NCBI RefSeq assembly: GCF_030013595.1
Contig: NZ_CP122768.1
From: Escherichia coli
GTDB lineage: Bacteria; Pseudomonadota; Gammaproteobacteria; Enterobacterales; Enterobacteriaceae
Reading direction: 5' to 3' (one strand)
Length of the DNA: 64,000 nt
Shown in pieces: positions 14,969 to 59,642 of this stretch. The notes under the pieces were generated by a model. It had not been told where the DNA came from, did no database searches, and saw only the letters and a program-made list of their open reading frames with translations. Positions within the stretch are counted from its first letter, which is position 1. Each line of letters begins with the position of its first letter. A program made the position numbers and the translations under genes.

Positions 14969-15295
14969 TTATTTGTTATTACTGCGAATTTCCTGCCAGA
15001 CCTTATCACAATCGGCTTTTACCGCCTGGTCATTACCGATTTGCGTTGCGCGCAGACACTGCTGATAATCCAGTACGCGTACACTTTCCTGGTCGGCAAA
15101 CTGCTGATGTTGTTTCTCTTTCTTTAGCACGTTTAACACGCTCTGGCAGGCTTCAATTTTTTCCGGCGAACCTTGCGCGGTGTTGATACAGGCGCTGTAA
15201 GCCTCTTTCAGACGGCTGTCTTCCTGCGGTGCGGTTGATTGCGCACAAGCTACCAGCCCCGTTGCCATCATGGCGATGAGAATCAGTTTTTTCAT
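14969..15295 (-). CDS. chiQ: Lipoprotein ChiQ (108 aa)
   Basis: ORF 14969..15295; signal peptide with lipobox LVAC; immediately downstream of chiP on the same strand. Confidence 0.9.
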   Translation of the reverse strand: MKKLILIAMMATGLVACAQSTAPQEDSRLKEAYSACINTAQGSPEKIEACQSVLNVLKKEKQHQQFADQESVRVLDYQQCLRATQIGNDQAVKADCDKVWQEIRSNNK

Positions 15296-16200
15296 AGCAA
15301 ATTCCTCAAACGTGCGGCAGGCACAAAACCTGCCGCGTCGGGCATCAGAAGATGGTGAATGGTGCGATTACCATGAATTTCACGTCGCGCTCATCCTGGA
15401 AAATGTTGCCGTAACCACCGCCCCAGCTTGGGATGTCGGAGTGGTTGTCATATTCGGTGAAATGCAGTTTGAACATCGTGCCCTTGGCGCGACCGTCCTG
15501 AATGGTGTACACCGCATCCAGGCTATATGCAGACTCTTCAATAGTCCGGTTCTTGTCGTAGTACGCATCCGGATTGCTCTGCCAGGTAGCGGGTTTAGCA
15601 TCCCATGCGTAAACGTAGGAAGCGCCGATGGCGAAGCCTGGAAGATTCCAGTTTTTCAGGTCATACATCGCACCGAAGAAGACCGCTTTTTCGCCGTTGG
15701 CGTTGAAGTCAGAACGGTTATCCCACCAGATATCCAGGCGACCGTTCGAGGAAGCGTAGGTTGGAGTCATACGTTGCAGGAAGTATCCCTGCTGACCGTC
15801 GGCTTTAACCCAGGTGCCTTCCAGACGCAAATCCACTACATCAGCCGCCCGGTAACCAAAGGTCAACGCTTGCAGCCAGGCGGTGCCGTCATAAAGATCG
15901 TTGACGCTGCGATCGTCAACTTTATCGCGCGTACCATAGAACTGGTAGCTGGTGGTTAACGGGCTACCGGCGATATCAAATTTGTAGCTGGCTTTGGCAA
16001 AATATTGATCGATATCCCCTTCTGCCTGACCAAATGCCGCTTCCAGTACAAAGTTATTTTTGAAGTCGTACTTCGCACCGATGGAGTGCAGATAATCAAC
16101 TTTGGTGGTTTTATCGTTCTGATAAAACTCATCCATTTCCAGATGCCACGGTGCTTTGTATTCGTTGGTCCACATGTAGGAGAAACTCAAGGCACCAGCA

Positions 16201-16209
16201 TCGCCGTAA
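16201..16209. repeat. Target-site duplication, left copy (TCGCCGTAA)
   Basis: Identical 9-mer directly abuts both ends of the IS. Confidence 0.9.
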
Positions 16210-17266
16210 GGCTTTGTTGAATAAATCGAACTTTTGCTGAGTTGAAGGATCAGATCACGCATCCTCCCGACAACACAGACCATTCCGTGGCAAAGCAAAA
16301 GTTCAGAATCACCAACTGGTCCACCTACAACAAAGCTCTCATCAACCGTGGCTCCCTCACTTTCTGGCTGGATGATGAAGCGATTCAGGCCTGGTATGAG
16401 TCGGCAACGCCTTCATCACGAGGAAGGCCCCAGCGCTATTCTGATCTCGCCATCACCACCGTTCTGGTGATTAAACGCGTATTCCGGCTGACCCTGCGGG
16501 CTGCGCAGGGCTTTATTGATTCCATTTTTTCTCTGATGAACGTTCCGCTACGCTGCCCGGATTACAGCTGTGTCAGCAGGCGGGCAAAGTCGGTTAATGT
16601 CAGTTTCAAAACGCCCACCCGGGGTGAAATCGCACACCTGGTAATTGATTCCACCGGGCTGAAGGTCTTCGGTGAAGGCGAGTGGAAAGTCAAAAAGCAT
16701 GGCCAGGAACGCCGCCGTATCTGGCGTAAGCTGCATCTCGCCGTTGACAGTAAAACACATGAAATCATCTGCGCTGACCTGTCGCTGAACAACGTTACGG
16801 ACTCAGAGGCCTTCCCCGGGTTAATCCGGCAAACCCACCGGAAAATCAGGTCAGCCGCCGCCGATGGCGCTTACGATACCCGGCTATGTCACGATGAACT
16901 GCGGCGTAAGAAAATCAGCGCGCTTATCCCTCCCCGAAAAGGTGCGGGTTACTGGCCCGGTGAATATGCAGACCGTAACCGTGCAGTGGCTAATCAGCGA
17001 ATGACCGGGAGTAATGCGCGGTGGAAATGGACAACAGATTACAACCGTCGCTCGATAGCGGAAACGGCGATGTACCGGGTAAAACAGCTGTTCGGGGGTT
17101 CACTGACGCTGCGTGACTACGATGGTCAGGTTGCGGAGGCTATGGCCCTGGTACGAGCGCTGAACAAAATGACGAAAGCAGGTATGCCTGAAAGCGTGCG
17201 TATTGCCTGAAAACACAACCCGCTACGGGGGAGACTTACCCAAAATCTGATTTATTCAACAAAGCC
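16210..17266 (+). mobile_element. IS903-type insertion sequence (IS5 family), 1057 bp, complete
   Basis: Perfect 18-bp terminal inverted repeats GGCTTTGTTGAATAAATC (16210-16227 and 17249-17266, reverse complement); single transposase ORF; 9-bp flanking direct repeat; length and end sequence match my recollection of IS903. Confidence 0.9.
16287..17210 (+). CDS. IS903-type DDE transposase (about 307 aa from GTG 16287; ORF track gives 322 aa from ATG 16242)
   Basis: Translation ...[36 protein letters not shown]...AADGAYDT... matches the IS903/Tn903 transposase as I recall it; ORF lies wholly within the IRs. Confidence 0.85.
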
Positions 17267-17275
17267 TCGCCGTAA
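17267..17275. repeat. Target-site duplication, right copy (TCGCCGTAA)
   Basis: Identical to 16201-16209. Confidence 0.9.
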
Positions 17276-18171
17276 TCAAAATTCGCTCCGGCTTCCGCAC
17301 CCTGATAAGTACCTGGCATAAAGCTCCAGTGCGGCGCTAACAGCGTCTGACCGGTTGGCTGAATATAACCTGCCCTCGCCCAAACCGGACCGTATTTAAA
17401 TTTGGCCGCAGCTTTATACAGGCTTATACCGCTTTTGTCGCCGGACCAGTCTTCGTCATAGGCTTTATTACTTTTTGAAAACGCGATTTCGTTCGGGTGA
17501 GAGCTGTCGCCGTTTTCCGCCATTTCAATCGCCGTAAACGCGGCAATATCAAGGCCGAACATATCAGCAGCATAACCGGACTGAAAATCGAGGTTGGCGT
17601 TCCAGGTGGAGTGAGAAAGGTTGGTTTTGTATTTGTCGCCGTCGGTAACATCTTTACGGTCGCGTTCACGCTGCCAGTAATAGATACCGCCGGTTAAGGT
17701 TGAATCGTCGATGAATCCTTCGGCGCGAGCCTCCGGCATTGCCATAAAGCCCGACATTGCTGTAACACCGGCGATAGCCAGCGCCAGCGTACTACGTTTG
17801 CCACTAAACGTACGCATGGGTTAATCCTCTTTGACGTATAAATTGCTGCACCAAAGGTGAACAGCGAAAAAAATAAAAATTAAAAAAGTAGCGTTGAGAA
17901 AAGTCTCGCTGACTACAGGAACAGACTATTTTTCGCGACGCGAATTATCAATCTCTTTCTGTAACCAGAATGTAAGAACATGAGCAACCGCACATATTTT
18001 GATGATTTTTGTTACAAGGCTTAAGTTTGCGGTTGAAAGGCTTGCAGAAGAATAAAAACGTGAAATTCCAGCAAGATGAAAGCGTTTACATTTTATTTAA
18101 TTATGATTTGTGATTTTAAATTTATTTTATGAATAAATTGCGAAGCGGAATTAATTCGCGAAGAAAAGCAG

Positions 18172-18199
18172 AAAAAAACGCCGCAGAGCGCGGCATTTT
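18172..18199 (-). terminator. Rho-independent terminator of glnS
   Basis: GCCGC-AGAGC-GCGGC hairpin with A-run on plus strand (T-run on minus strand). Confidence 0.6.
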
Positions 18200-18218
18200 G
18201 AATTGTTTGCATGTTTCA

Positions 18219-18257
18219 TGCCGGATGCGGCGTAAACGCCTCACCCGGCCTGGTAGA
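18219..18257. repeat. REP (repetitive extragenic palindrome) element
   Basis: TGCCGGATGCGGCGTAAACGCCTCACCCGGCCTGGTAG matches the E. coli REP consensus family. Confidence 0.75.
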
Positions 18258-18265
18258 ACTTAAAA

Positions 18266-19930
18266 TTACTCGCCTACTTTCGCCCAGGTATCACGCAGCC
18301 CAACGGTGCGGTTAAATACCGGTTTTTCCGCCGTAGAATGGCGGCTGTCGAGGCAGAAATAACCTTCACGCTCAAACTGGAATGCTTTACCCGCTACCGC
18401 GTCTTTCAGAGACGGTTCAGCAAAGCCCTGTTTGATCACCAGCGATTCCGGGTTAATCACCGACAGGAAATCATCCGCAGCACCTGGGTTCGGCACGCTG
18501 AACAGACGATCGTACAGGCGGATTTCAACCGGCAGCGCATGTGCCGAGCTCACCCAGTGAATAACGCCTTTCACTTTACGACCATCTGCCGGATCTTTGC
18601 TTAAGGTGTCGGCGTCATAAGTACAGAAGATGGTGGTGATATTGCCTTCGGCATCTTTCTCCACGCGTTCTGCCTTAATGACGTAAGCATTACGCAGACG
18701 CACTTCTTTACCCAGCACCAGACGCTTGTACTGCTTGTTAGCTTCTTCGCGGAAATCGGCGCGATCGATCCAAATCTCACCGCTAAACGGCACCTGACGG
18801 CTCCCCATTTCCGGTTTGTTCGGATGGTTCGGCATGGTAACCATTTCACCTTCGCCCTGATAGTTTTCGATAACCAGTTTCACCGGATCGATAACCGCCA
18901 TTGCGCGCGGGGCGTTTTCGTTGAGATCTTCACGGATGCAGGATTCCAGCGACGCCATTTCAATGGTGTTGTCCTGCTTGGTCACGCCGATGCGTTTGCA
19001 GAACTCACGAATAGAAGCCGCAGTGTAACCACGACGACGCAGACCGGAAATGGTCGGCATACGCGGGTCATCCCAGCCTTCAACGTGCTTGTCGGTCACC
19101 AGCAGGTTCAGCTTACGCTTGGACATCACAGTGTATTCCAGATTCAGGCGCGAGAATTCGTACTGGCGCGGGTGAACAGGAATGGTGATGTTGTCCAGCA
19201 CCCAGTCGTACAGGCGACGGTTGTCCTGGAACTCAAGCGTACACAGAGAGTGCGTAATACCTTCCAGCGCATCGCTGATGCAATGGGTGAAGTCGTACAT
19301 CGGGTAGATGCACCACTTGTTGCCAGTCTGGTGGTGTTCAGCAAATTTAATGCGGTACAGCACCGGATCGCGCATTACGATAAATGGCGACGCCATGTCG
19401 ATTTTCGCACGCAGGCAGGCTTTACCTTCTTCAAAACCGCCGGTACGCATTTTCTCGAACAGCGCCAGGTTCTCTTCAACGCTGCGGTCGCGGTACGGGC
19501 TGTTTTTACCCGGCTGCGTCAGGGTGCCGCGGTATTCGCGGATCTGTTCCGGTGTCAGTTCATCAACGTACGCCAGGCCTTTATTGATCAGTTCGATCGC
19601 ATAGGCGTGGAGCTGATCAAAATAATCGGAGGAGTAACGGACGTTACCAGACCAGTGAAAACCTAACCACTCAACGTCGTTTTTGATCGACTCAACATAC
19701 TCGATATCTTCTTTTACCGGGTTAGTGTCGTCGAAACGCAGGTTGCACTGGCCTTTATAGTCCTGGGCGATCCCGAAGTTCAGGCAGATAGATTTCGCAT
19801 GGCCAATATGCAGATAGCCATTCGGCTCCGGCGGGAAACGGGTGTGTACTGTGGTGTGCTTACCACTGGCCAGATCTTCATCGATGATCTGACGAATAAA
19901 GTTAGTCGGGCGGGCTTCTGCCTCACTCAT
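18266..19930 (-). CDS. glnS: Glutaminyl-tRNA synthetase (554 aa)
   Basis: ORF 18266..19930; class I aaRS HIGH motif (HIGHAKS) and KMSKS-type VMSKR. Confidence 0.97.
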
Positions 19931-20131: not shown

Positions 20132-22078
20132 TTACTTTTTGATTTCATACAGCGGTGTTTGACCCGCCATGACATGGCCCTGAGCTTTAATGATCAAGCC
20201 GCTGAAATCGTCGATATTGCTGCAAACCACCGGGCTAATCATCGAACGGGCGTTAGCGTTCAGGTAATCCAGATCCATTTCCAGAATCGGTTGCCCTGCG
20301 CTTACTTGCGCGCCCTCTTCCACCAGACGTTTAAAACCTTTACCTTCCAGCGCTACGGTGTCGATACCCATATGGACGACGATCTCCGCGCCTTTTTCGG
20401 TTTCCAGGCAGAACGCGTGGTTGGTATTGAAGATTTTCACGATTGTCCCTGCGGCTGGTGATACGACGATTTTATCTGTCGGTTTCACCGCCACACCGTC
20501 ACCCACCGCTTTGCTGGCGAATGCTTCGTCAGGAACCTGATCCAGTGCCACAACATCACCGGTAATCGGCGATACCAGCTCCGCGATAGACACCGCGTTT
20601 GGTACAGCCTGCGGTTTTGCTACAGGCGCGGCAGTTGCAGGCGCAGTTTCAGCTGACGCAGCGGCTACCGGACCACGGGCAACAACTTTCTTCATTGCAT
20701 CGCCAATGGATTCCGCTTTCGCGCCAACAATCACCTGAATAGTCTGTTTGTTCAGTTTCACTACCCCAGAAGCACCCAGCCGTTTACACATCGCATCGTT
20801 GACGCGAGCCGAGTCAACCACGGTCAGGCGCAGACGAGTAATACAGGCGTCAATTGCTTTCAGGTTGTCAGTGCCGCCAACCGCAGCAATATAGTTGGTC
20901 GCCAGTTGATTGAGGCCTTCTTCAGTGTTGCTGTTGGCTTCTTCAGTAACGATCTCATCTTCTTTATCTTCACGACCCGGCGTTTTCAGGTTGAACATGC
21001 GGATAACCAAACTGAACACCACGAAGTAGATAGCGAAGAAGACAACACCCATCACCAGCAGCATCCAGACGTTCTGGCTGGCGGCCGGCAGGTTATACAT
21101 CAACGCGTAGTCGATAGCCCCCGCAGAGAAGGAGAAGCCCGCGTGGATACCCAGCAGCGTTGCCACAAACAGGCTGATACCGGTCAGCAGTGCGTGCAGG
21201 AGGTACAGCAGCGGCGCAAGGAACATGAACAGGAATTCCAACGGCTCAGTCACACCGGTCAGGAACGCAGTAACAGCAACAGAAAGCAGCATACCGCCAA
21301 CCATCGGACGACGCTCTTTCGGTGCTGCAAAGTACATCGCCAGCGCCGCACCCGGCAGACCGAACATCATGATCGGGAAGAAGCCGGACATGAACATCCC
21401 CGCGGTGCCGTCACCAGCGTAGAAACGGTTGATGTCGCCGTGGAAAACCGTACCCGCCGCGTTGGTGAATTCACCAATCTGGAACCAGGCGATGGTGTTC
21501 AGCACCTGATGCAGACCGGTTGGGATCAGCAGACGGTTGATGAAACCAAAGATACCGGAACCCAGCGCGCCCGCAGAAACGATCCACTCGCCGCCTGCAT
21601 GGATAGCGTGCTGTACCGGCGGCCAGACGTAACCAAAAATGGCCGCCAGCACCAGGCAGAAGAAGCCGGTGGCAATCGGCACAAAGCGTTTGCCGCCGAA
21701 GAAGCTCAGGAAGTCAGGCAGTTTAATATCGGACCAACGGTTATAGGCTGCGCCACCAACCAGACCGGTAATGATACCCGCCAGTACACCCATGTTAATT
21801 TCTGGGTTGATGGTCACCATCGCTTTGGTTAACACAAAGTAACCTACCGCACCCGCCAGCGCCGCCGCACCTGCGCTGTCTTTCGACCAGCTGGATGCCA
21901 CACCGATGGCGAAGATTAATGCGAGGTTATCAAAAATCGCACCGCCCGCCTGGGCAATAAACGCAACGTTAAGTAAATCTGGCTGACCGAATCGCAGCAA
22001 CAGCGCCGCCACCGGCAGCACCGCGATAGGGAGCTGTAACGCCCTACCGAGTCGCTGGAAAAAACCTAAAATATTCAT
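20132..22078 (-). CDS. nagE: PTS N-acetylglucosamine-specific EIICBA (648 aa)
   Basis: ORF 20132..22078; glucose-family EIIC membrane domain, EIIB cysteine motif (…IDACITRLR…), C-terminal EIIA domain. Confidence 0.95.
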   Translation of the reverse strand: MNILGFFQRLGRALQLPIAVLPVAALLLRFGQPDLLNVAFIAQAGGAIFDNLALIFAIGVASSWSKDSAGAAALAGAVGYFVLTKAMVTINPEINMGVLAGIITGLVGGAAYNRWSDIKLPDFLSFFGGKRFVPIATGFFCLVLAAIFGYVWPPVQHAIHAGGEWIVSAGALGSGIFGFINRLLIPTGLHQVLNTIAWFQIGEFTNAAGTVFHGDINRFYAGDGTAGMFMSGFFPIMMFGLPGAALAMYFAAPKERRPMVGGMLLSVAVTAFLTGVTEPLEFLFMFLAPLLYLLHALLTGISLFVATLLGIHAGFSFSAGAIDYALMYNLPAASQNVWMLLVMGVVFFAIYFVVFSLVIRMFNLKTPGREDKEDEIVTEEANSNTEEGLNQLATNYIAAVGGTDNLKAIDACITRLRLTVVDSARVNDAMCKRLGASGVVKLNKQTIQVIVGAKAESIGDAMKKVVARGPVAAASAETAPATAAPVAKPQAVPNAVSIAELVSPITGDVVALDQVPDEAFASKAVGDGVAVKPTDKIVVSPAAGTIVKIFNTNHAFCLETEKGAEIVVHMGIDTVALEGKGFKRLVEEGAQVSAGQPILEMDLDYLNANARSMISPVVCSNIDDFSGLIIKAQGHVMAGQTPLYEIKK

Positions 22079-22202
22079 CTTATTCCCCCTACGAGAACCC
22101 TATTTGGCTCGTTTAAAGCCGTATTTTTATTTTGCTGCAAATTGTACTGCCGATGTTCTGTAATCAGATTGTTAGATCATCTGCTACAGAGTGTGTGAAA
22201 AT

Positions 22203-22224
22203 TTAATTCGTATCGCAAATTAAA
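22203..22224. promoter_or_regulatory. Candidate NagC operator in the nagE-nagB divergent region
   Basis: Quasi-palindrome TTAATTCGTATCGCAAATTAAA; a second AT-rich candidate lies about 90 bp away (around 22291-22316), fitting the two-operator looping arrangement known for this region. Confidence 0.5.
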
Positions 22225-22254: not shown

Positions 22255-22410
22255 TATCGTTATCATCACTCCCTTTTACTGGCTAAACCAGAAAACTTAT
22301 TTTATCATTCAAAAAATCAGGTCGGATTGACGCCTGTCTGCGCAAATCCAGGTTACGCTTAAAGATGCCTAATCCGCCAACGGCTTACATTTTACTTATT
22401 GAGGTGAATA

Positions 22411-24427: not shown

Positions 24428-25648
24428 ATGACACCAGGCGGACAAGCTCAGATAGGTAATGTTGATCTCGTAAAACAGCTTAACAGCGCGGCGGTTTATC
24501 GCCTGATTGACCAGTATGGGCCAATCTCGCGGATTCAGATTGCCGAGCAAAGCCAGCTTGCCCCCGCCAGCGTAACCAAAATTACGCGTCAGCTTATCGA
24601 ACGCGGGCTGATTAAAGAAGTTGATCAGCAGGCCTCCACCGGGGGCCGCCGCGCTATCTCTATCGTCACCGAAACCCGCAATTTCCACGCAATCGGCGTA
24701 CGGCTTGGTCGTCACGACGCCACCATCACCCTGTTTGATCTCAGCAGCAAAGTGCTGGCAGAAGAACATTACCCGTTGCCGGAACGTACCCAGCAGACGC
24801 TGGAACATGCCCTGCTGAATGCCATTGCTCAGTTTATTGATAGCTACCAGCGCAAGCTGCGCGAGCTGATCGCCATTTCCGTGATCCTGCCGGGGCTTGT
24901 TGACCCGGACAGCGGCAAAATTCATTACATGCCGCATATTCAGGTGGAAAACTGGGGGCTTGTAGAAGCACTGGAAGAGCGTTTTAAAGTGACCTGTTTT
25001 GTCGGCCACGATATCCGCAGTCTGGCGCTGGCGGAGCACTACTTCGGTGCAAGTCAGGATTGCGAAGACTCCATTTTAGTGCGTGTCCATCGCGGAACCG
25101 GGGCCGGGATTATCTCTAACGGGCGCATTTTTATTGGCCGCAACGGCAACGTCGGTGAAATTGGCCATATCCAGGTCGAACCTCTGGGTGAACGCTGCCA
25201 CTGTGGCAACTTTGGCTGCCTGGAAACTATCGCCGCCAACGCTGCCATTGAACAACGGGTGTTGAATCTGTTAAAGCAGGGCTACCAGAGCCGTGTGCCA
25301 CTGGACGACTGCACCATCAAAACTATCTGCAAAGCCGCGAACAAAGGCGATAGCCTGGCGTCGGAAGTGATTGAGTATGTCGGTCGTCATCTGGGCAAAA
25401 CCATCGCCATTGCTATCAACTTATTTAATCCGCAAAAAATTGTTATTGCCGGTGAGATCACCGAAGCCGATAAAGTGCTGCTCCCTGCTATTGAAAGCTG
25501 CATTAATACCCAGGCGCTGAAGGCGTTTCGTACTAATCTGCCGGTGGTACGTTCTGAGCTGGATCACCGCTCGGCAATCGGCGCTTTTGCGCTGGTAAAA
25601 CGCGCCATGCTCAACGGTATTTTGCTCCAGCATTTGCTGGAAAATTAA
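24428..25648 (+). CDS. nagC: ROK-family transcriptional regulator NagC (406 aa)
   Basis: ORF 24428..25648; N-terminal HTH and ROK zinc motif CHCGNFGCLE. Confidence 0.95.
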   Translation: MTPGGQAQIGNVDLVKQLNSAAVYRLIDQYGPISRIQIAEQSQLAPASVTKITRQLIERGLIKEVDQQASTGGRRAISIVTETRNFHAIGVRLGRHDATITLFDLSSKVLAEEHYPLPERTQQTLEHALLNAIAQFIDSYQRKLRELIAISVILPGLVDPDSGKIHYMPHIQVENWGLVEALEERFKVTCFVGHDIRSLALAEHYFGASQDCEDSILVRVHRGTGAGIISNGRIFIGRNGNVGEIGHIQVEPLGERCHCGNFGCLETIAANAAIEQRVLNLLKQGYQSRVPLDDCTIKTICKAANKGDSLASEVIEYVGRHLGKTIAIAINLFNPQKIVIAGEITEADKVLLPAIESCINTQALKAFRTNLPVVRSELDHRSAIGAFALVKRAMLNGILLQHLLEN

Positions 25649-28749: not shown

Positions 28750-28826
28750 GGCTACGTAGCTCAGTTGGTTAGAGCACATCACTCATAATGATGGGGTCAC
28801 AGGTTCGAATCCCGTCGTAGCCACCA
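28750..28826 (+). tRNA. metT: tRNA-Met (elongator, anticodon CAU)
   Basis: 77-nt cloverleaf GGCTACGTAGCTCAGTTGG...CTCATAA...GGTTCGAATCC...GCCACCA with encoded CCA. Confidence 0.95.
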
Positions 28827-28835
28827 TCTTTTTTT

Positions 28836-28920
28836 GCGGGAGTGGCGAAATTGGTAGACGCACCAGATTTAGGTTCTGGCGCCGCAAGGTGTGCGAGTTC
28901 AAGTCTCGCCTCCCGCACCA
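28836..28920 (+). tRNA. leuW: tRNA-Leu (anticodon UAG)
   Basis: 85-nt long-variable-arm tRNA GCGGGAGTGGCGAAATTGGTAGACG...TTTAGG...CGCACCA. Confidence 0.93.
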
Positions 28921-28943
28921 TTCACCAGAAAGCGTTGTACGGA

Positions 28944-29018
28944 TGGGGTATCGCCAAGCGGTAAGGCACCGGTTTTTGATACCGGCATTCCCTGGTTCGA
29001 ATCCAGGTACCCCAGCCA
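28944..29018 (+). tRNA. glnU: tRNA-Gln (anticodon UUG)
   Basis: 75-nt TGGGGTATCGCCAAGCGGTAAGGCACCGGTTTTTGATACCGG...CCAGCCA. Confidence 0.93.
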
Positions 29019-29052
29019 TCTTCTTCGAGTAAGCGGTTCACCGCCCGGTTAT

Positions 29053-29127
29053 TGGGGTATCGCCAAGCGGTAAGGCACCGGTTTTTGATACCGGCATTCC
29101 CTGGTTCGAATCCAGGTACCCCAGCCA
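29053..29127 (+). tRNA. glnW: tRNA-Gln (anticodon UUG)
   Basis: Identical copy of the preceding Gln tRNA. Confidence 0.93.
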
Positions 29128-29142
29128 TCGAAGAAACAATCT

Positions 29143-29219
29143 GGCTACGTAGCTCAGTTGGTTAGAGCACATCACTCATAATGATGGGGTCACAGGTTCG
29201 AATCCCGTCGTAGCCACCA
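29143..29219 (+). tRNA. metU: tRNA-Met (elongator, anticodon CAU)
   Basis: Second copy of the metT sequence. Confidence 0.93.
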
Positions 29220-29267
29220 AATTCTGAATGTGTCGAATAAGTTCGGCAAATTCACAAACCAATTTGT

Positions 29268-29342
29268 TGGGGTATCGCCAAGCGGTAAGGCACCGGATTC
29301 TGATTCCGGCATTCCGAGGTTCGAATCCTCGTACCCCAGCCA
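29268..29342 (+). tRNA. glnV: tRNA-Gln (anticodon CUG)
   Basis: 75-nt Gln tRNA with anticodon loop GGATTCTGATTCC. Confidence 0.93.
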
Positions 29343-29379
29343 ATTTATTCAAGACGCTTACCTTGTAAGTGCACCCAGT

Positions 29380-29454
29380 TGGGGTATCGCCAAGCGGTAA
29401 GGCACCGGATTCTAATTCCGGCATTCCGAGGTTCGAATCCTCGTACCCCAGCCA
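29380..29454 (+). tRNA. glnX: tRNA-Gln with anticodon CUA: amber (UAG) suppressor allele, supE44-type
   Basis: Same sequence as the preceding Gln(CUG) gene except anticodon loop GGATTCTAATTCC; anticodon CTA at 29412-29414. Confidence 0.9.
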
Positions 29455-36937: not shown

Positions 36938-37846
36938 ATGCAATTACGTAAACCTGCCACAGCAATCCTCGCCCTAGCGCTTTCCGCAGGACTGGCACAG
37001 GCAGATGACGCCGCCCCGGCAGCGGGCAGTACGCTGGACAAAATCGCCAAAAACGGTGTGATTGTCGTCGGTCACCGTGAATCTTCAGTACCTTTCTCTT
37101 ATTACGACAATCAGCAAAAAGTGGTGGGTTACTCGCAGGATTACTCCAACGCCATTGTTGAAGCAGTGAAAAAGAAACTCAACAAACCGGACTTGCAGGT
37201 AAAACTGATTCCGATTACCTCACAAAACCGTATTCCACTGCTGCAAAACGGCACTTTCGATTTTGAATGTGGTTCTACCACCAACAACGTCGAACGCCAA
37301 AAACAGGCGGCTTTCTCTGACACTATTTTCGTGGTCGGTACGCGCCTGTTGACCAAAAAGGGTGGCGATATCAAAGATTTCGCCGATCTGAAAGGCAAAG
37401 CCGTAGTCGTCACTTCCGGCACTACCTCTGAAGTTTTGCTCAACAAACTGAATGAAGAGCAAAAAATGAATATGCGAATTATCAGCGCCAAAGATCACGG
37501 TGACTCTTTCCGTACCCTGGAAAGCGGTCGTGCCGTTGCCTTTATGATGGATGATGCTCTGCTGGCTGGTGAACGTGCGAAAGCGAGGAAACCAGACAAC
37601 TGGGAAATCGTCGGCAAGCCGCAGTCTCAGGAAGCCTACGGTTGCATGTTGCGTAAAGACGATCCGCAGTTCAAAAAGCTGATGGATGACACCATCGCGC
37701 AGGTGCAGACCTCCGGTGAAGCGGAAAAATGGTTTGATAAATGGTTCAAAAACCCAATTCCGCCGAAAAACCTGAACATGAATTTCGAACTGTCAGACGA
37801 AATGAAAGCACTGTTCAAAGAACCGAATGACAAGGCACTGAACTAA
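36938..37846 (+). CDS. gltI: Glutamate/aspartate periplasmic binding protein GltI (302 aa)
   Basis: ORF track 36863..37846; start at internal Met (MQLRKPATAILALALSAGLAQA signal peptide). Confidence 0.93.
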   Translation: MQLRKPATAILALALSAGLAQADDAAPAAGSTLDKIAKNGVIVVGHRESSVPFSYYDNQQKVVGYSQDYSNAIVEAVKKKLNKPDLQVKLIPITSQNRIPLLQNGTFDFECGSTTNNVERQKQAAFSDTIFVVGTRLLTKKGGDIKDFADLKGKAVVVTSGTTSEVLLNKLNEEQKMNMRIISAKDHGDSFRTLESGRAVAFMMDDALLAGERAKARKPDNWEIVGKPQSQEAYGCMLRKDDPQFKKLMDDTIAQVQTSGEAEKWFDKWFKNPIPPKNLNMNFELSDEMKALFKEPNDKALN

Positions 37847-37849
37847 TTA

Positions 37850-38002
37850 CAAGAACCAGGGGCGGAAATTCCAGCCCTCTCGATTGTTACGTAGCACGGA
37901 CAGACTATACGCCTGATGGTCGTTCCCCATCGGGCCTGAAAACCGCAATACGCTGGGTAACAATCTTCGAGGGTAGCAGTTAACGCTGCTACCCTCTTTT
38001 TT
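37850..38002 (+). ncRNA. sroC: sRNA SroC (gltI 3'UTR / gltI-gltJ intergenic), approximate 5' end
   Basis: 169-bp intergenic region ending in a strong intrinsic terminator (GAGGGTAGCAG-TTAACG-CTGCTACCCTC + TTTTTT at 37969-38002); location matches where SroC lies in K-12. Confidence 0.6.
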
Positions 38003-38015
38003 CTGGAGTAGATTT

Positions 38016-59205: not shown

Positions 59206-59211
59206 AGACCA

Positions 59212-59240
59212 AAAAAAACCCGCTGATTAAGCGGGTTTTG
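59212..59240. terminator. Bidirectional terminator between crcB and cspE
   Basis: AAAACCCGCT-GATTA-AGCGGGTTTT hairpin. Confidence 0.75.
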
Positions 59241-59258
59241 AATTCTTGCTGACGTATC

Positions 59259-59468
59259 TTACAGAGCGATTACGTTTGCAGCAGAAGGGCCTTTGGCACC
59301 GTTAGTGATTTCGAACTCTACGCGCTGACCTTCAGCAAGAGTTTTAAAACCATTAGTCTGGATTGCAGAGAAGTGTACGAACACGTCTTTGCTGCCGTCT
59401 TCCGGAGTAATGAAACCGAATCCTTTGGACTCATTAAACCACTTAACGTTACCTTTAATCTTAGACAT
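59259..59468 (-). CDS. cspE: Cold-shock-like protein CspE (69 aa)
   Basis: ORF track 59259..59552; start at [20 protein letters not shown] (RNP1 motif). Confidence 0.95.
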
Positions 59469-59642
59469 CAAAATTACCTTTACATGAAAAATAGACACAA
59501 ATGCTGTGTCGGTTACCAGTACACCAATTGTGGTACGCTTTGTCCAGTGCAACTTTACTAAAAAGTGATAAAAGTCGCGTTATTTTTGATGTTAATTATT
59601 TTACTCATTGATTTTAAAGAGTTTACTAAAATTTCATTTGTC

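Follow-up and report, generated by a model that had tools for sequence, protein, structure and literature searches.

NagC and its paralogue Mlc bind 23-bp quasi-palindromes in which the sole invariant positions are TT at -6,-5 and AA at +5,+6 (PMC4288165). NagC sites of high affinity carry C or G at +/-11, those with A/T there being of low affinity; the nagE operator is of the latter type and needs a loop to the strong nagB operator, from which it is filled cooperatively, with CAP lying between the two (PMC4288165). At the LEE1 NagC site, one change at position 18 abolished the footprint (PMC5401889).

The chiP (ybfM) gene is repressed by NagC (PMC4098024), and a 2026 bioRxiv paper reports the same for Salmonella. 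A RegPrecise-based supplement also has ybfM/chiP as a NagC target, giving no site coordinates. The operator GATAATTCGCGTCGCGAAAAATA is included as 'ybfM proximal' in the FITBAR table of experimentally known NagC operators, which came from J. Plumbridge (PMC3098098); this 2010 label suggests that a further site was already known to the Plumbridge laboratory. Pairing of ChiX with chiP has been proven by compensatory mutations, as cited in PMC7815308, where the function of ChiZ and the ChiX sponge model are also described. In the K-12 annotation, chiZ (b4808) is an ncRNA of 98 nt that immediately precedes the chiP ATG.

The glnS-chiP intergenic region is the documented chiP control region

We analysed a 64,000-nt stretch of E. 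coli DNA (hereafter the window), in which chiP lies on the minus strand and is separated from glnS by an intergenic region of 448 bp (17818-18265). The elements that frame this region were located as follows:

17817, minus strand: chiP start codon ATG
17923-17951, minus strand: putative chiP promoter, with -35 TTGATA (17951-17946), a 17-bp spacer and -10 TAGTCT (17928-17923)
17927-17949, minus strand: NagC operator 'ybfM/chiP proximal', GATAATTCGCGTCGCGAAAAATA
18175-18199, minus strand: glnS intrinsic terminator
18266-19930, minus strand: glnS (TIGR00440, 1067 bits), with its stop at 18266
20132-22078, minus strand: nagE
24428-25648: nagC, in the nagBACD genes that follow the nagE and nagB operators, intact (NF047937, 719 bits)

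A sequence-only reading of this DNA had described 17818-18170 as the AT-rich promoter and leader of chiP, under the control of NagC and ChiX. The GC content of the interval is indeed 33.7%, compared with 51.4% across the 64-kb window, and gene positions, the published operator and homology to K-12 chiZ agree on the assignment; control by NagC and ChiX is documented (PMC4098024, PMC7815308). The region is the already documented chiP (ybfM) control region. The transcription start, expected inside the interval, was placed at 17916 by homology to K-12 chiZ (b4808). The glnS terminator was found with a terminator scan, and its hairpin ACGCCGC...GCGGCG(T)n is kept in the alignment. When the whole window was searched with Rfam at the gathering threshold, no match was obtained in 17818-18265; matches elsewhere (28750-29451, 37842-38004 and 59211-59569) were a seven-tRNA cluster, sroC and a cspA-type thermoregulator leader.

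A search of 5,426 complete E. coli genomes found the intergenic region in 5,424; two pig isolates carry it in a form 100% identical to the window. For comparison across genera, 81 intact chiP loci were used, comprising 2 E. coli references and 79 related loci. Synteny of glnS and chiP was seen in 72 of the 81 (70 of the 79), drawn from over 20 Enterobacteriaceae genera; the other loci had no glnS anchor in the flank examined. The intergenic length was approximately 400-570 bp in syntenic loci, bar one outlier of 1,266 bp (L040, Enterobacter sp. JUb54). In this locus about 800 bp are inserted between glnS and the distal operator described below, and the operator pair is kept with a spacing of 225 bp.

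We trained a NagC PWM on the 10 sites of PMC3098098 Table 1 and used leave-one-out scoring. The proximal operator, an exact match to the sequence in Tables 1 and 2 of that paper, ranked first of 127,956 window positions, and it was still first when it and the two nag operators were dropped from the training set. The nagE and nagB operators served as internal controls and were recovered at 22202-22224 and 22296-22318. At 21-23 bits the proximal operator stands at the top of the known-site range; it follows the NagC rule (TT at -6,-5 and AA at +5,+6) and has G at -11 and A at +11. The motif scan and the comparison with the published promoter thus both lead to 17927-17949, about 220 bp downstream of a palindrome that the earlier reading had flagged as a possible NagC-type operator; the proximal operator was not singled out there.

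The proximal operator covers the promoter spacer (-33 to -11), between the hexamers, and the operator/promoter block has an identity of 0.98 across 24 genera. The -35/-10 assignment is our reading of the sequence relative to the transcription start, and the putative hexamers are nearly invariant in the 24-genus alignment. A consensus promoter scan did not call TTGATA/TAGTCT; its sole match was an AT-rich segment (18119-18090), at chance frequency. Because nagC in the window is intact, regulators should still be able to bind the region, as had been suggested. In three Citrobacter loci (L020, L021, L022) the proximal operator was found at -245 from the chiP ATG, compared with the usual position of about -121, which implies that ~125 bp have been inserted into the chiP leader in these lineages.

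The flagged palindrome is a chance feature

The palindrome had been placed at 18146-18161. The 16-mer in question, GCGGAATTAATTCGCG, is found one base away, at 18145-18160, and is no palindrome, its reverse complement being CGCGAATTAATTCCGC. Only its core is self-complementary:

18148-18157, unstranded: self-complementary 10-bp core GAATTAATTC, the only palindromic part of the 16-mer

Outward of this core, the next 8 positions on each side all mismatch. When the intergenic region was shuffled 2000 times with dinucleotides preserved, 58% of the shuffles held at least one perfect 10-bp palindrome, and the 64-kb window has 53 such palindromes, with ~62 expected. Of 73 Enterobacteriaceae loci, 13 have GAATTAATTC and 62 have GCGAA[AT]TAAT; the TC that completes the palindrome (18148-18149) has an identity of only 0.35 across 24 genera. 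The palindrome is an incidental feature, produced where the AATTAAT of a NagC right half-site runs by chance into TC.

As a NagC operator the palindrome was not borne out, since the 23-mers centred on it (18141-18163 and 18142-18164) lack TT/AA at +/-5,6 and scored -24 to -39 bits. The idea of a NagC-type operator at the flagged bases nevertheless survives in part, because these overlap the conserved right half of a distal 23-mer; the dyad centre of the latter is at 18161, compared with 18152/18153 for the palindrome. For annotation, this means that the palindrome should not be marked as an operator, the real operator being 17927-17949.

Other arrangements around the palindrome were rejected. 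'Site B' (18133-18155, ATTAATTCCGCTTCGCAATTTAT) has TT/AA on both strands but scored -3 to -16 bits, and was discarded because of this low score and its lack of conservation beyond E. coli and Salmonella. A GCGAA/TTCGC hairpin and a GCGAAG direct repeat were judged to be chance features.

A candidate distal NagC operator is conserved at stepped spacings

The conserved sequence beneath the palindrome belongs to a longer element:

18150-18172, minus strand: distal NagC-type 23-mer ('site A'), TCTGCTTTTCTTCGCGAATTAAT, dyad centre 18161
18150-18160, minus strand: conserved right half-site CGCGAATTAAT, overlapped by the flagged palindrome

The distal 23-mer follows the TT/AA rule, is centred 223 bp upstream of the centre of the proximal operator and adjoins the T-run of the glnS terminator. 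Its +/-11 positions are T/T, and the C or G of high-affinity NagC sites is not present. An asymmetric PWM gave it 10-12 bits, on a par with the weakest known sites (9-12). A symmetric PWM gave 5-7 bits, less than any known site reached in leave-one-out scoring (9-22). The Escherichia version has a degenerate left half. The TT-N9-AA pattern is frequent in the local AT-rich DNA (22 of 852 positions), where other weak AT-rich matches were seen at 18116-18138 and 18102-18124. The distal 23-mer has TCTTCGCGAATTA in common with the chbB distal NagC operator, CTTAATTATCTTCGCGAATTATT, and their right halves are identical; the left halves differ, that of chbB being a good CTTAATT with C at -11 and that of the window TCTGCTT with T at -11. 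It is absent from the 24 sites of the FITBAR K-12 scan table (Table 2), which has the proximal chiP operator, and literature searches for a distal chiP NagC site, which did not reach the primary chiP papers, found none.

A TT-N9-AA 23-mer ending in GCGAA(T/A)TAAT was found in 65 of 73 Enterobacteriaceae loci, from more than 20 genera. It follows closely on the glnS terminator, and the proximal operator lies 200-245 bp downstream of it (162 bp in one locus). In most genera the distal site is a full operator by sequence, scoring up to 20-23 bits; examples in the range of 20-23 bits are TTATTTTCGCGATGCGAATTAAT in Klebsiella/Raoultella, ATATATTCGCGACGCGAATTAAT in Superficieibacter and TTTAATTCGCGACGAGAATTAAT in Kosakonia arachidis. 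In the 24-genus alignment CGCGAATTAAT forms a conservation island, with an identity of 0.87 compared with 0.35-0.46 in its otherwise unalignable flanks. The alignment also suggests that in Escherichia the DNA between the glnS terminator and the distal operator centre has been lost. Judged from the alignment, what has been conserved is the predicted distal NagC-type operator (dyad at 18161), of which the palindrome is a by-product.

The centre-to-centre spacings of the two sites fell into clusters of 200-203, 210-214, 221-226 (223 in the window), 232-238 and 245 bp, lying ~11 bp apart with empty gaps of 5-6 bp between them. Jumps of 10-11 bp were also seen within genera, in Citrobacter and Buttiauxella (two cases). 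A Rayleigh scan gave P ~0.013 on distinct spacings, uncorrected for shared ancestry, with a best period of 11.8 bp, which is longer than expected. The clustered spacings and the A/T at +/-11 fit a low-affinity auxiliary operator looped to the promoter operator. Since the left half has decayed in Escherichia, the contribution of the distal site there would be weak, if any.

Among the 73 loci, the canonical distal site was absent in the Enterobacter cloacae complex and Lelliottia. In these (L039, L045, L047, L050, L052, L079) the proximal operator is preceded, at 191-195 bp, by a CTTATTTT...-type AT-rich NagC-like match, which may stand in as the auxiliary site at a distance shortened by one helical step.

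CRP-like sites lie upstream of the promoter

Class I CRP sites have a TGTGA-N6-TCACA core centred near positions such as -61.5 or -71.5. Three candidate CRP sites were scored by matches to this core, each with 7 of 10:

17979-17994, minus strand: CRP-like site TGTGC-N6-TCATG, centred at -70.5
18001-18016: CRP-like site, centred at -92.5
18075-18090, minus strand: CRP-like site TGTAA-N6-TCATC, centred at -166.5

The block at -70.5 is conserved across genera (0.78). The site at -166.5, which lies between both NagC-type sites, is partly conserved (0.64), and its Buttiauxella version is closer to TGTGA-N6-TCA. A TGTAACA block at 18010-18016 is strongly conserved across genera.

The leader and its ChiX pairing site are intact

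The leader of chiP contains:

17818-17916, minus strand: chiP 5' UTR, the ChiZ equivalent, 99 nt (98 nt in K-12), transcription start G17916
17825-17836, minus strand: ChiX pairing site CGUCAAAGAGGA, 7 nt upstream of the ATG and in overlap with the Shine-Dalgarno sequence

Save for one extra T at 17873, the leader has the sequence of K-12 chiZ. Using the K-12 ChiX sequence (locus L083) in an exact-complement search, we found that the pairing site is a 12-nt perfect complement to ChiX nt 45-56 (UCCUCUUUGACG). The comparison with the ChiX pairing site that the sequence-only reading had called for shows the site to be intact, with the same complementarity as in K-12; its identity across genera is 0.87. 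Full-length RNAduplex pairing of ChiX with the leader gave -38.7, compared with a shuffle mean of -29.1 and a shuffle minimum of -43.7; the duplex was diffuse and not clearly better than the shuffles.

IS903B interrupts chiP in the window

chiP had been described as broken by an insertion sequence, and this is confirmed by the following arrangement:

14969-15295: chiQ, after the chiP 3' fragment
15345-16209, minus strand: chiP 3' fragment
16210-17266, plus strand: IS903B, 1057 bp, with an IS5-family transposase (NF033579, 358 bits) and terminal inverted repeats
17267-17817, minus strand: chiP 5' fragment, codons 1 to ~184, after which the frame enters the IS

The insertion lies in codon ~184 and is flanked by a 9-bp target duplication, TCGCCGTAA, at 16201-16209 and 17267-17275. 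The insert is 99.9% identical to annotated IS903B copies (query positions 111-1167). The chiP 5' fragment is collinear with the intact chiP of a reference locus (L001); it covers only positions 1-182 of 460 of the ChiP profile NF047822 and scored 305 bits, below the cut-off of 750. In none of 5,426 complete E. coli genomes was this insertion seen (best coverage 83%), and it therefore looks strain-specific and recent. Expression of chiQ is probably abolished through IS903B polarity.

The earlier reading took the control region to be driving a dead gene. This holds for the protein, as no ChiP porin can be made, but not for the RNA, since the 99-nt ChiZ leader with its ChiX site is intact. The control region is thus not simply driving nothing, because the ChiZ leader, a ChiX sponge, is unaffected. 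By its sequence, the region can no longer yield porin and should still be able to make ChiZ.

Discussion

We consider the most probable reading of this locus, at a probability of roughly 0.6, to be a known control region with an incidental palindrome, a distal low-affinity auxiliary NagC operator and a leader that is intact despite IS903B. Taken as a whole, the sequence-only reading had the region, the regulators and the IS right; the operator was misidentified, though the flagged bases touched half of the distal NagC-type site.

The control of chiP could then proceed as follows. Transcription would run from TTGATA-17 bp-TAGTCT with its start at 17916, NagC would repress by occupying 17927-17949 between both hexamers, and GlcNAc-6-P would lift this repression. 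The distal site at 18150-18172 would most likely act as a low-affinity auxiliary operator, filled cooperatively by NagC via DNA looping as at nagE-nagB, in a loop of 223 bp (~20-21 helical turns) with the CRP-like sites inside it. A dual role of CRP, in activation and in bending of the loop, is possible by analogy with nag and chb. The 99-nt leader carries the ChiX site and would give ChiZ, and IS903B abolishes ChiP but spares the promoter, the two operators, the pairing site for ChiX and ChiZ itself. The sequence identities, the conservation and the spacing pattern are observed, whereas NagC binding at the distal site, looping and a role for CRP are what we infer.

It is possible, though we doubt it, that the distal element in Escherichia is a non-functional relic, the strong promoter operator repressing alone and the flagged bases being inert. 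E. coli and E. albertii both have a degenerate left half, the alignment suggests loss of the sequence that joined the glnS terminator to the operator centre, and the symmetric PWM gives 5-7 bits. One strong NagC operator can repress alone, as at nagEso and galP (PMC4288165), and the proximal operator was the strongest-scoring NagC site tested. However, the right half and the TT at -6,-5 are kept in E. coli, E. albertii, Salmonella and Citrobacter, and over 18148-18172 the window is identical to K-12 while the neighbouring AT-rich DNA differs at several positions. The 223-bp spacing also falls in the 221-226 cluster, and the asymmetric score (10-12 bits) is at the level of the weakest known sites. 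Use of the distal motif for another purpose, as an Mlc site, a roadblock to glnS read-through or a site for another regulator, is improbable. Such a use would suit a site immediately past the glnS terminator, and the logos of Mlc and NagC cannot be told apart, with A/T at +/-11 as the Mlc signature; yet the documented repressor of chiP is NagC (PMC4098024; 2026 bioRxiv paper on Salmonella) and Mlc control is unreported, the Citrobacter distal versions have C at -11, and a roadblock hardly explains phased spacing to a NagC operator.

We regard it as very unlikely that the auxiliary NagC site of E. coli is not 18150-18172 but one of the AT-rich matches at 18116-18138 (spacing 189 bp) or 18102-18124. 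These have TT/AA, a symmetric PWM on a uniform background gives them 13.3 and 11.9 bits, and the Enterobacter cloacae complex, which is without the canonical distal site, has its CTTATTTT... matches at a spacing of 191-195 bp. Under the local AT-rich background, however, the matches drop to 6.8 bits; their region is poorly conserved (0.37), and the window and K-12 differ at 18132, 18112 and 18106. That the GAATTAATTC-centred palindrome is itself the operator, with a dyad at 18152/18153, can scarcely be credited: NagC operators are of odd length with a central base and the palindrome is even, its occurrence is at chance level (P=0.58) with retention in 13 of 73 loci, and the 23-mers centred on it fail as described above. 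Its resemblance to a NagC site, being AT-rich with CG-containing flanks, is superficial; CGCGAATTA of the palindrome is common to the chbB distal operator.

On the preferred reading, with a distal auxiliary operator and an intact leader, little changes for the field, as the chiP promoter, NagC operator, ChiX site and ChiZ are already documented. The distal NagC-type site, conserved and to all appearances phased, makes a modest point for comparative genomics; if it has so far been uncharacterised, it offers a clean natural test of long-range NagC looping. An IS-disrupted chiP would leave an intact regulated leader able to serve as a ChiX sponge. We put forward only tentatively the wider idea of a family-wide phased auxiliary NagC operator, looping over ~200-245 bp and decaying in Escherichia, together with an IS-killed chiP that persists as a NagC-regulated 'RNA-only' gene. 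If this were true, ChiZ/leader transcripts would still titrate ChiX and tune chb expression without porin.

Compared with the chiP promoter systems of K-12 and Salmonella, the operator and the 12-nt ChiX complementarity are identical in the window, and chiP is split by IS903B only in the window. The K-12 locus has the same glnS-chiP-chiQ-fur synteny. Between 18200 and 17818 the window and K-12 differ at 10 positions, and the alignment puts every one of these outside the promoter, the two operators, the ChiX site and the palindrome. The K-12 intergenic region is longer (576 bp, compared with 448 bp here), with extra REP-containing DNA after glnS. This amounts to ~130 bp between glnS and the terminator (L002 2759-2905); the window has a REP-like palindromic element, GCCGGATGCGGCGTAAACGCCTCACCCGGCC, at 18205-18260, between the glnS stop and the glnS terminator. 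Like nagE-nagB, the chiP region would combine one strong operator with one weak operator that has A/T at +/-11, with CRP-like sites between them and the same repressor. The nagE and nagB operators in the window have their centres 94 bp apart, compared with ~223 bp at chiP. Unlike at nagE-nagB, the weak site at chiP lies far from the promoter and has no gene of its own, and looping at chiP is a prediction.
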